From Candidatus Magasanikiibacteriota bacterium (lineage in GTDB: Bacteria; Patescibacteriota; Patescibacteriia; Magasanikbacterales; UBA922): a stretch of 64,000 bases of DNA. The notes below the pieces were generated by a model. It did no database searches. It saw only the letters and a program-made list of their open reading frames with translations, and had not been told where the DNA came from. The DNA lies in the NCBI GenBank assembly GCA_049287025.1, contig JBAQFA010000051.1, positions 65,697-129,696 of the forward strand, read 5' to 3'. Position numbers and translations under genes: made by a program. How positions within the stretch are numbered: the first letter of the stretch is position 1; each line of letters opens with the position of its first letter. Positions 5,459-49,024 of this stretch are shown in pieces.

Positions 5459-5540
5459 GCCCAGGTGGCGAAATTGGTAGACGCACTACCTTGAGGTGGT
5501 AACGCCGTAAGGCATGGAGGTTCGAGTCCTCTCCTGGGCA
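5459..5540 (+). tRNA. tRNA-Leu (anticodon GAG), type II with long variable arm
   Basis: Acceptor GCCCAGG/CCTGGGC. Anticodon loop TTGAGGT. Variable arm GCCGTAAGGC. T-arm GGAGG-TTCGAGT-CCTCT. Discriminator A. CCA is not encoded. Confidence 0.85.
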
Positions 5541-5543
5541 CAA

Positions 5544-5582: not shown

Positions 5583-5999
5583 TTCATTACATAGTAGATG
5601 ATCAATCTTCGACTTTATGTTGGAGGTAGGAAAGTCCGAACATTCACCCGATGTAAATTGGGTAATAGAGTAGCGGGTAACTCCCGTCGGTCGCGAGACT
5701 AGAGGTGCGAGCAGTGACGCCGAGACGCGAAAGTGTCGAGGCACCACGTAAAAGCGTAAGCTTTTCACGTGGTGAACTCTGATAGTGATATCAGAGGTGA
5801 AACGGCAAAATCCTTACTTGAATGAAAGAACAGCCTTTCGATTCACTTCGTTCGCTTAGAGCAGACTAATTATTGGATGCTTTGGGCGAATGAAGTGCAA
5901 TTTGATTGGACAAGTTAGTTCGCTTGACCCAGCTGGTAACAGCCTGGGCAGATAAATGATCGTCCTAGACAAAATTCGGCTTATAGCTATGTAATGAAC
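5583..5999 (+). ncRNA. rnpB: RNase P RNA (bacterial type A)
   Basis: 13-bp P1 helix: gttcattacatag at 5583-5595 pairs with ctatgtaatgaac at 5987-5999. Conserved 'GGAGGTAGGAAAGTCCGAACA' (P4 5' strand) and 'ACAAAATTCGGCTTATAG' (P4 3' strand, cf. ACAGAAcCCGGCTTA). Locally GC-rich with no ORF. Confidence 0.85.
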
Positions 6000-6086: not shown

Positions 6087-6135
6087 GATTTATTCCTTAT
6101 TCCCTGCCTGCGCAGGCAGGTTTATTCCTTACTCC
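6087..6135. repeat. 18-bp perfect palindrome cctgcctgcgcaggcagg flanked by direct repeats tttattccttaYtcc (family B palindromic element, intergenic copy)
   Basis: Perfect palindrome at 6103-6120. Flanking 14-15-bp direct repeats at 6087-6101 and 6121-6135. Related copies lie inside CDSs at 6694, 16525 and 18300. Confidence 0.5.
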
Positions 6136-47529: not shown

Positions 47530-47908
47530 GTACAAAAAGTTATCCACACTAGGTCTTGCAAATTTTTTGGCGTTTTAGTAAGATAAAACAGATAGAAATA
47601 ATATGAATTCACAAAATAACAACCAAAATATATATAAGAACTGGAGTATCAAGTTGTCTATTGTCGTACGCAATCTTTTTGTGTACGTTTTGTATTCTAG
47701 GGTGCTATATATAAATGGTTGCTATAATGATTAATAAATATTTATATAATAAAAAGCACTCTAGAAAAACTAGAGTGCTTTAATTTTATAAAAATTGTTC
47801 TTTAAACAAGGAGGAAATAGGGTAGACAAATATTTTTAACAGATAGATAATTAAAATTAGTTATTTTTCTGGTGGAGATATCAACCAAATATCTTTTGGA
47901 GGGATCCA

Positions 47909-48097: not shown

Positions 48098-48491
48098 CGA
48101 CAGTATGGGGTGGCGGGAGTATGGACTTGTGGTCTTTCCCGCCACCCTGAGGATCATGACAAAACCGCCAGAAACTTGAGAGAAAAATTTATTGTTCTTT
48201 CAAGGAGGTTACGGCGGTTTTGTTTTTAAATTTGACATGGTTATTTTGATGTGAGATAATATGTTTGATCCTGATAGCTGTGGCAGTTCATATCATATCC
48301 GCAAATATTCATACTTGGGAAACCTATATTTCTCCAGCCTGTGGGCTAGAGGTGCGGTTACCCACCTGATTTTCAGGGGTATGGATATGTCCTGCTTCGG
48401 GCTGATGGATCTACAAAAGACAATCTTAAAGAGGTTGTTTTTTTAACTTGACTTTTGTAATTAATTAGTGTATTATATTTTTGCTTTTTAT

Positions 48492-48565
48492 GGACCCGTA
48501 GCTCAGTTGGTTAGAGCGCTACATTGACATTGTAGAGGTCAGAAGTTCAACTCTTCTCGGGTCTA
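48492..48565 (+). tRNA. tRNA-Val (anticodon GAC)
   Basis: GGACCCG-TA-GCTCAGTTGGTTAGAGC-G-CTACA-TTGACAT-TGTAG-AGGTC-AGAAG-TTCAACT-CTTCT-CGGGTCT-A. No CCA encoded. Confidence 0.85.
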
Positions 48566-48670
48566 CAGAGGATGCTCAGTTTCGGCCAAAGGCCGACCAG
48601 CCTCTGGCTGGGGTTAGAGCGTCCCGATTTTACATCGGGAAGGTCAGAAGTTCAACTCTTCTCGGGTCTA
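48566..48670 (+). other. Partial tRNA-Val duplicate lacking a 5' acceptor strand, with the anticodon arm replaced by hairpin tcccga-ttttaca-tcggga (UUA anticodon-like loop)
   Basis: 48613-48670 repeats GGTTAGAGCG ... AGGTCAGAAGTTCAACTCTTCTCGGGTCTA, the exact 30-nt 3' end of tRNA-Val. The preceding 48 nt contain the hairpins tcggcc-aaa-ggccga and agcc-tct-ggct. No sequence pairs with the 3' acceptor strand. Confidence 0.4.
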
Positions 48671-48758
48671 CTAGGGCTTTGCTTATACTATGCCCTATAA
48701 ATAGTTTACTACTTGAAAAAATTTTATAAGTGTAGTATACTCCTTTTACTTTTTATAA

Positions 48759-48835
48759 AGGGCAATTAGCTCAGTTGGCTAGAGCGCAACACTGATAATG
48801 TTGAGGTCCCAGGTTCGATTCCTGGATTGCCCACC
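48759..48835 (+). tRNA. tRNA-Ile (anticodon GAT)
   Basis: GGGCAAT-TA-GCTCAGTTGGCTAGAGC-G-CAACA-CTGATAA-TGTTG-AGGTC-CCAGG-TTCGATT-CCTGG-ATTGCCC-A-CCA. CCA is encoded. Confidence 0.9.
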
Positions 48836-48945
48836 AAACACAGTTGGACAAAACTGTGTTTTAATTTACAAAAAAGATGCTTAGTAATGAGATTCTCGGA
48901 GCGAAGCGAAGATCCCGATTTTTATCGGGACTGGATTGCCCACCA
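48836..48945 (+). other. Terminator hairpin, then a second tcccga-tttttat-cggga hairpin fused to a 15-nt copy of the tRNA-Ile 3' end (ctggattgcccacca)
   Basis: aacacagtt-ggacaaa-aactgtgtt followed by T4 at 48836-48868. 48909-48945 reads gatcccgatttttatcgggactggattgcccacca, then the hairpin ccgtcc-aaaata-ggacgg. Confidence 0.4.
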
Positions 48946-49024
48946 AGCCGTCCAAAATAGGACGGTTTTAAATTTGATTTTTTTGGGAAATAGGTATATA
49001 ATTGATTTTACATTAATTTATTTT

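Follow-up and report, generated by a model that had tools for sequence, protein, structure and literature searches.

In a 64,000-nt stretch of the genome of a Candidatus Magasanikiibacteriota bacterium (assembly GCA_049287025.1, contig JBAQFA010000051.1, positions 65,697 to 129,696 of the forward strand; hereafter the window, numbered from its first letter), the genes for tRNA-Val(GAC) and tRNA-Ile(GAU) are each followed by a short insert ending in a direct repeat of the gene's own 3' end. Both inserts appear to be non-functional, same-strand partial tRNA copies (pseudo-tRNAs) that keep parts of the D arm and the 3' end. They are probably the open reading frame (ORF)-less, or 'solo', relics of a cassette that consists of an intact tRNA gene, an ORF for a GIY-YIG nuclease of the UPF0213/YhbQ type, and a pseudo-tRNA. 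This cassette has a recognizable anatomy, with ORF and pseudo-tRNA tightly linked, is polymorphic in its presence or absence, and is widely distributed, at Ala, Val, Ile, Met, Pro and Phe tRNA genes of unrelated bacteria.

Two pseudo-tRNAs in the window

The 3' terminal 31 nt of tRNA-Val recur exactly 105 bp downstream of the gene, within a looser similarity of 43 nt at 88% (48629-48671). The 16-nt tRNA-Ile 3' end CTGGATTGCCCACCAA likewise occurs twice, at 48822-48837 and 109 bp downstream (coordinates of all features are collected in Table 1). A preliminary description of this sequence had noticed both repeats, counted as 30 and 15 nt, together with a hairpin at the position of the anticodon arm and a segment common to the two inserts (GATGCTCAG and GATGCTTAG), and all of these observations held up. 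Both copies lie on the same strand as the adjacent tRNA, which their 3' part matches, and in both a GC hairpin has taken the place of the anticodon arm. The TCCCGA-loop-TCGGGA pattern of these hairpins is expected by chance 0.02 times in the window.

The Val copy keeps the full GAGCG..AGGTC frame; from the Ile copy the variable loop and the 5' T arm have been deleted (AGGTC is gone). The hairpin is not confined to the window: the Val stem is found at the same position in loci L039, L082 and L084 and in the 175 copies of the scan described below, the Ile hairpin has a counterpart in L001 (TCCCGA-TTTATA-TCGGGG), and its 18-mer is identical in metagenome locus L183, where a GIY-YIG ORF lies ~600-750 nt off. 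The remnant GATGCTCAGTT of the Val copy stands at the position that it has in the pseudo-tRNAs of L081 and L223, and a hairpin comparable to the terminator-like one at the left end of the Ile insert is present between tRNA and ORF in the intact cassettes L221 and L223.

The D-loop of the Val copy contains a 30-nt double-hairpin module. Homologous modules were found elsewhere in the D-loop (L029, L044) or the T-loop (L003, L010, L013, L084) of pseudo-tRNAs, and all six occurrences of the pattern CCAGCC-N3-GGCTGG have a tRNA no more than 500 nt away. Neither the module nor the pseudo-tRNA matched any Rfam family besides tRNA, SRP RNA and small ribozymes being among those checked.

The same anatomy in other Magasanikbacteria

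The LepB encoded in the window is 100% identical to a protein recorded for Candidatus Magasanikbacteria, a Candidate Phyla Radiation lineage. The locus was compared with 80 species-level Magasanikbacteria loci (1.29 Mb), 69 of which contain the tRNA pair, and extra tRNA-Ile or tRNA-Val fragments were present in 24 of these 69. BLAST breaks the fragments into tRNA positions 1-28 and 44-75, and the anticodon arm is therefore the part that has been replaced. Beside the fragment, eight loci have an ORF of 85-95 amino acids (aa) that starts at the tRNA 3' end (CCCAC followed directly by ATG) and belongs to Pfam GIY-YIG (PF01541). A hidden Markov model (HMM) of these ORFs gave ten hits in the 1.29 Mb, every one of them adjoining tRNA-Ile or tRNA-Val. 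Three kinds of arrangement occur: tRNA-ORF-3' copy, 5' copy-ORF-tRNA, and tandem repeats of either.

The replacement stems are of several types (TCCCGA/TCGGGA, CCCCGC/GCGGGG, TCCCGC/GCGGGA, and perfect palindromes such as CCCGCCGCGGCGGG), and other GC hairpins interrupt D- or T-loops of the copies. L039 has a TCCCGA-type pseudo-tRNA together with a GIY-YIG ORF, and L084 reads tRNA, ATG, GTTAGAGCG and TCCCGA..., the form expected after a clean deletion of the ORF. In L044, L003 and L010 the 3' end of the pseudo-tRNA is unlike that of the resident tRNA, consistent with an import from some other genome.

Two further observations concern these loci. In L007, a run of N (a scaffold gap, 1778-1876) has one and the same tRNA-Ile 3' end plus flank on either side, which suggests that such repeats break or confuse assemblies. 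Nested GC-rich palindromes (CCCTCCCC ... TCCCGA-loop-TCGGGA ... GGGGAGGG) occur far from tRNAs in L014 (4330-4400 and 5300-5370) and L018 (15150-15210), and look like a separate small palindromic repeat family that reuses the inner hairpin.

Hairpin and protein searches in other bacteria

Viral and metagenome contigs were scanned with the motif GAGCG-TCCCGA-N4-8-TCGGGR-AGGTC, which matched at least 120 metagenome stretches and two 'viral' contigs, the latter flanking tRNA-Pro and tRNA-Ala genes beside GIY-YIG ORFs. We analysed 122 listed loci of 28-68% GC, to which the following counts refer. They hold 175 copies of the hairpin, 160 of them not called as tRNA. A GIY-YIG ORF is present in 60 of the 122 loci, retrieved by the hairpin motif alone, and 64 of 65 such ORFs lie on the same strand as a pseudo-tRNA and within 300 nt of it (median 15 nt), most commonly in the order tRNA-ORF-pseudo-tRNA. 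A real tRNA of the same locus is matched by 110 copies, 109 of these on the same strand, and the isotypes concerned are Ala-GGC (40), Val-GAC (18), Met-CAT (17), Ile-GAU (11), Ala-UGC (9), Pro (5) and others. Clusters of ORFs at 45% identity or more mix isotypes. The hairpin moves between hosts and isotypes, and the 3' part of each copy fits the local tRNA. Three motif matches are genuine tRNA-Ala(GGC) genes with the native arm TCCCG-AUGGCAU-CGGGA, a resemblance that suggests the source of the hairpin.

Tandem arrays reach seven or eight units (L137). In the arrays at L137 (220-750), L115 (1700-1910), L162 (10845-11310) and L223 (840-1870), the unit is either a pseudo-tRNA of 72-94 nt or a whole ORF plus pseudo-tRNA, and each unit carries a piece of native tRNA flank.

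Selection by protein homology only gave the same picture: the order tRNA-ORF-pseudo-tRNA was found in four of four loci, from a cultured Agriterribacter humi isolate, a Chitinophagaceae metagenome-assembled genome and Moranbacteria, often with extra 5' copies or with three tandem ORF-plus-copy units. The ORF, ~270 nt long, encodes a GIY-YIG catalytic domain alone, whose nearest solved structures are the UPF0213 proteins BH0048 (1ZG2, E 1.4e-10) and EF2693 (1YWL), of 96-107 aa, followed by SLX1. Both ORF families retain the catalytic GIY-YIG residues, and for one of them (family A) a word-indexed protein search gave only two relatives. UPF0213/YhbQ is a very common family of stand-alone GIY-YIG proteins, bacterial SLX1-like nucleases with no assigned role. 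A phage origin was considered and rejected, as scans of viral-contig proteins gave only distant giant-virus matches.

Empty sites and gain or loss of units

Empty sites were found for both inserts. In L001 and L012, where LepB is 90% identical to that of the window and the flanks are ~95% identical, the Val insert is missing as a clean 105-bp indel and the Ile insert is retained. The more distant relatives L003 and L004 have no Ile insert, tRNA-Ile being followed directly by the terminator that comes after the insert in the window. Among the scanned contigs, L148 and L149 (97-99% identical) differ by exactly one unit of ORF plus pseudo-tRNA-Phe, flanked by the tRNA-Phe 3' repeat, and also in how many solo pseudo-tRNA-Ile units they carry. 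Both forms, with and without the ORF, come and go as units that have tRNA repeats at their borders, and presence/absence polymorphism, a feature of homing endonuclease genes, is seen both between the window and L001 and between L148 and L149. The preliminary description had proposed excision scars or a miniature tRNA-targeting element; with the insertion-type footprints, the empty sites and the recurrence of the hairpin elsewhere, a miniature or decayed tRNA-targeting element is a fair reading, and the parts that did not stand are the integrase as agent and a simple att core.

The GIY-YIG ORF of L148 (~2290-2600), on a very AT-rich contig, is open only with TGA as a sense codon, which suggests that its host has reassigned TGA (genetic code 4 or 25). 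Another indel separates L001 from the window: a GC-rich stretch of ~230 bp (L001 ~2700-2930) upstream of a small zinc-ribbon ORF has, by eye, no counterpart in window 47800-47900.

Probable relics of the cassette and its possible mode of spread

No GIY-YIG ORF lies between tRNA and copy in the window, and the window copies are for this reason classed as ORF-less relics rather than intact members of the cassette. A candidate C-terminal ORF remnant in the Ile insert was rejected, its alignment with ORF 3' ends being unconvincing and the HMM giving no match.

How the cassette spreads can be outlined tentatively from sequence comparison, in a scheme to which we give somewhat less than even weight: a nuclease-triggered break or nick in the tRNA gene would be repaired from a cassette-bearing donor. 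In the template, the left homology arm would be the intact tRNA and the right arm the 3' part of the pseudo-tRNA; the product would end up with a right arm of the recipient's own sequence, in agreement with what is seen. Such break repair would explain host-matched pseudo-tRNA 3' ends while the hairpin travels with the element. Loss of the ORF and recombination between direct repeats would then yield solo copies (as the two in the window), arrays and empty sites. The ORF would probably be expressed by read-through from the tRNA promoter, with the 5' end of its mRNA at or near the tRNA 3' processing site, and non-canonical loops, truncations and loop insertions may keep the copies from mis-decoding as tRNAs.

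Several points weigh against the assignment of the window inserts to this cassette, or against the scheme itself. Even at E<=10 the HMM search found neither a GIY-YIG ORF nor a remnant of one in the window, so the link between window and cassette rests on shared anatomy. The 105-bp indel fits deletion between the 31-nt repeats, leading to the L001 state, as easily as insertion leading to the state of the window. The nuclease has no DNA-binding domain, which leaves its site specificity unexplained; in the homing endonucleases I-TevI, Seg and Mob the nuclease is joined to a DNA-binding module that the cassette ORFs lack. The intact tRNA beside the ORF has a normal anticodon arm, with no visible protection from an enzyme that cuts tRNA genes. 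The motif scan, moreover, favours a single stem sequence and tRNAs whose flanks are GAGCG/AGGTC. Finally, the hairpin alone is non-diagnostic, because TCCCGA-type hairpins are also plain terminators (L029, 6359) and the native arm of some tRNA-Ala(GGC).

Alternative explanations

The pseudo-tRNA might instead be a functional RNA partner of the nuclease, such as an antitoxin or decoy, a regulator, or a guide to the matching tRNA gene, in which case the window copies would be orphan partner genes. We consider this unlikely. In its favour, among the listed loci the stem is conserved across hosts of 28-68% GC and the loops vary freely, and stems vary by lineage yet remain complementary (TCCCGA/TCGGGA and the two further types given above). 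Arrays of seven or eight units (L137), a protein of 85-95 aa that has no sequence-recognition domain, and the occurrence of related ORFs at different tRNA isotypes also agree with a partnership. However, a whole cloverleaf is possible for only 18 of the 175 listed copies, even with a normal anticodon arm restored; most, 90%, are truncated at the 5' or 3' end, and several centres are perfect DNA palindromes that would fit a DNA-level role equally well. In a more specific version, slightly less probable again, the pseudo-tRNA would be a tRNA scaffold bearing the conserved hairpin, with a variable acceptor/T-arm part to specify the tRNA gene or tRNA under attack or protection. Such a system could account for the ability of a bare catalytic domain to find tRNA genes and of related ORFs to switch isotype.

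A local duplication of the usual kind, in which slippage or unequal crossing-over at the tRNA pair was followed by decay, would have nothing to do with a nuclease, the GIY-YIG genes merely having landed in the same permissive spot; it is about as improbable as an RNA partnership. Tandem units and copy-number differences between near-identical genomes show active repeat recombination, and about half of the listed motif loci are without an ORF. Nevertheless, duplication leaves unexplained why, in unrelated bacteria, Ala, Val, Ile, Met and Pro genes are all accompanied by copies with this one hairpin in place of the anticodon arm, why all but one of the 65 listed ORFs lie so near to a copy, and why a copy is present in every protein-selected locus.

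Integrase-mediated insertion is classically recognised by direct repeats of tRNA 3' ends (van der Gulik et al., 2023; PMC9897764), and repeats of 31 and 16 nt do flank inserted DNA in the window. The preliminary description had read them as attL/attR scars, which would imply an integrase-mobilised island or prophage whose interior was later deleted. This origin is very improbable: the interval in intact relatives is a single GIY-YIG ORF and nothing else, and the copy is not a simple att core, since it reaches the D arm and has an engineered-looking replacement of the anticodon arm. Two independent deletions to ~100 bp would also be needed, and no integrase or other recombinase was found among ten mid-sized window ORFs scanned with Pfam (glycosyltransferases, Tgt, QueA and similar). 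A miniature inverted-repeat transposable element or insertion-sequence derivative was rejected as well: the insert ends have no terminal inverted repeats, and what flanks the inserts is 16-31 nt of repeated tRNA sequence.

Least probable of all, to the point of being negligible, is a genuine suppressor tRNA with the anticodon UUA, which the loop of the Val hairpin had called to mind and which ARAGORN predicts by labelling 48599-48671 'tRNA-Stop(tta)'. This segment scores 20.8 bits with the Rfam tRNA model, below the gathering threshold of 29, and its 5' strand CAGAGGA does not pair with CGGGTCT, so that there is no paired acceptor stem; the earlier statement that a 5' acceptor strand is absent and the tRNA incomplete was correct. 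The hairpin has a 6-bp stem and C at position 37, a canonical 7-nt anticodon loop is not conserved among its homologues, and the sequence is missing from the close relative L001. The UUA anticodon itself is unsupported because the loops of this hairpin type are hypervariable, the 175 listed copies having loops of 4-8 nt with 99 different sequences. Neither window copy is a tRNA, the UUA loop is incidental, and both a UUA suppressor tRNA and integrase scars are effectively excluded. A split, permuted or intron-containing tRNA at the Val locus was also rejected, tRNA-Val being complete alone and the copy dispensable in L001.

Comparison with known systems

SegB, a GIY-YIG homing endonuclease gene of phage T4, lies within the T4 tRNA gene cluster (PMC2330249). 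The T4 Seg/Mob systems resemble the cassette in having a GIY-YIG gene beside tRNA genes, in their presence/absence polymorphism, and in their presumed spread by break-induced gene conversion of flanking DNA. In contrast, Seg/Mob proteins exceed 200 aa and have DNA-binding domains, whereas the cassette ORFs encode a UPF0213-type catalytic domain of 85-95 aa, and Seg genes make no pseudo-tRNA copies or hairpin replacements.

Organelle genomes contain mobile endonuclease ORFs accompanied by a duplicated 3' end of the host gene, for example Allomyces atp6 with a GIY-YIG ORF. As in the cassette, a nuclease is found at an essential gene with one intact copy and a displaced partial direct repeat, but there the host is a protein gene, the ORF is fused in frame, and neither an engineered-looking hairpin in the leftover copy nor tandem arrays are known. 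The tRNA fragments made by integrases (PMC9897764) are like the window copies in being a same-strand 3' repeat downstream of an intact tRNA and in being mis-called as tRNA. The cassette and the window copies differ from them in the absence of a recombinase, an interval of 75-300 bp, the copying of most of the tRNA, and the replacement of the anticodon arm.

Small GC-rich palindromic inserts are familiar from AT-rich genomes, among them yeast mitochondrial GC clusters, Allomyces double-hairpin elements and Rickettsia palindromic elements. The 30-nt module and a palindrome of the type CCTGCCTGC..GCAGGCAGG (see below) are likewise short GC-rich hairpins in an AT-rich genome at non-essential sites. 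Unlike these elements, they show a preference for the D-, anticodon- and T-loops of pseudo-tRNAs, and their mobility is only putative.

None of the systems compared joins a UPF0213-type nuclease with a pseudo-tRNA of replaced anticodon arm. In the literature searched we found no description of a linkage of UPF0213 to tRNA genes or pseudo-tRNAs, and none of the tRNA-linked GIY-YIG/pseudo-tRNA cassette in the full texts covered, with a description outside that literature being possible. The UPF0213/YhbQ members examined here are tied to tRNA genes and pseudo-tRNAs in a selfish-cassette-like manner, which gives this family a testable function, and the association extends over lineages in Candidate Phyla Radiation bacteria, Bacteroidota and unassigned metagenome contigs. 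Programs that find tRNAs mistake the pseudo-tRNAs for genuine genes (here for a 'stop-codon suppressor'), and tRNA loci vary in copy number on account of them. Should the nuclease prove to be directed by the hairpin or by the pseudo-tRNA, this would be a new way to target a small nuclease; and if the pseudo-tRNA is the nuclease's working partner, the cassette would represent an RNA-specified or RNA-antagonised GIY-YIG system.

The tRNA locus and other RNA genes of the window

Table 1. Features of the tRNA-Val/tRNA-Ile locus (window coordinates).
Feature	Position	Strand	Basis or remark
Promoter-like site of tRNA-Val, TTGACT/TATTAT	48448-48476	+	Promoter scan
tRNA-Val(GAC), intact	48492-48566	+	ARAGORN; Rfam 69.9 bits
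Val insert (pseudo-tRNA-Val), 105 bp	48567-48671	+	Alignment with L001
GATGCTCAG	48571-48579		Val insert
GATGCTCAGTT, remnant of tRNA positions ~7-17 (acceptor end, 5' D-stem, D-loop)	48571-48581	+	Comparison with tRNA-Val GTAGCTCAGTT
30-nt double-hairpin module in D-loop of pseudo-tRNA-Val, TCGGCC-AAA-GGCCGA and CCAGCC-TCT-GGCTGG	48582-48611	+	Hairpin scan
GGTTAGAGCG, D-loop and 3' D-stem of pseudo-tRNA-Val	48612-48621	+	Identical to tRNA-Val 48509-48518
Hairpin TCCCGA-TTTTACA-TCGGGA in place of anticodon arm (Val copy)	48622-48640	+	
Variable loop, T arm and 3' acceptor strand of tRNA-Val, exact 31-nt copy	48641-48671	+	
Promoter-like site of tRNA-Ile	48713-48741	+	Promoter scan
tRNA-Ile(GAU), intact, CCA encoded	48760-48836	+	ARAGORN; Rfam 74.5 bits
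Terminator-like hairpin AAACACAGTT-GGACAA-AACTGTGTTT with T run, left end of Ile insert	48836-48861	+	
Ile insert, 109 bp	48837-48945	+	Comparison with relatives
GATGCTTAG, 5' D-arm remnant of pseudo-tRNA-Ile	48876-48884	+	One frame reads TAG TAA TGA
Hairpin TCCCGA-TTTTTA-TCGGGA, directly adjoining Ile copy	48913-48930	+	
16-nt copy of tRNA-Ile end: 3' T-stem, acceptor strand, CCA, A	48931-48946	+	
Native terminator CCGTCC-AAAATA-GGACGG with T run	48948-48972	+	Also in empty-site relatives

Just upstream of tRNA-Val, a probable 6S RNA gene (48265-48415, + strand) is preceded by a promoter-like site (48232-48260). Its Rfam score of 37.6 bits (E 2e-5) is under the gathering score of 46.4, and 6S-like sequence recurs at the equivalent place in L001 and L004, and also in L010, where it lies on the opposite strand. 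In another part of the window, ARAGORN reports a 'tRNA-??? (tg)' at 5459-5541 (+ strand); it has a long variable arm, scores 49.3 bits in Rfam and by eye is a tRNA-Leu(GAG). A promoter-like spacer separates this candidate from a class A RNase P RNA with large insertions (5586-5999, + strand; 103.4 against a threshold of 100). Downstream of the RNase P RNA, at 6103-6120, lies the GC palindrome CCTGCCTGC-GCAGGCAGG. Palindromes of this type are inserted in pseudo-tRNA T-loops of L022, L035, L033 and L066, and of the eight copies in the data set, seven have a tRNA no more than 500 nt away.

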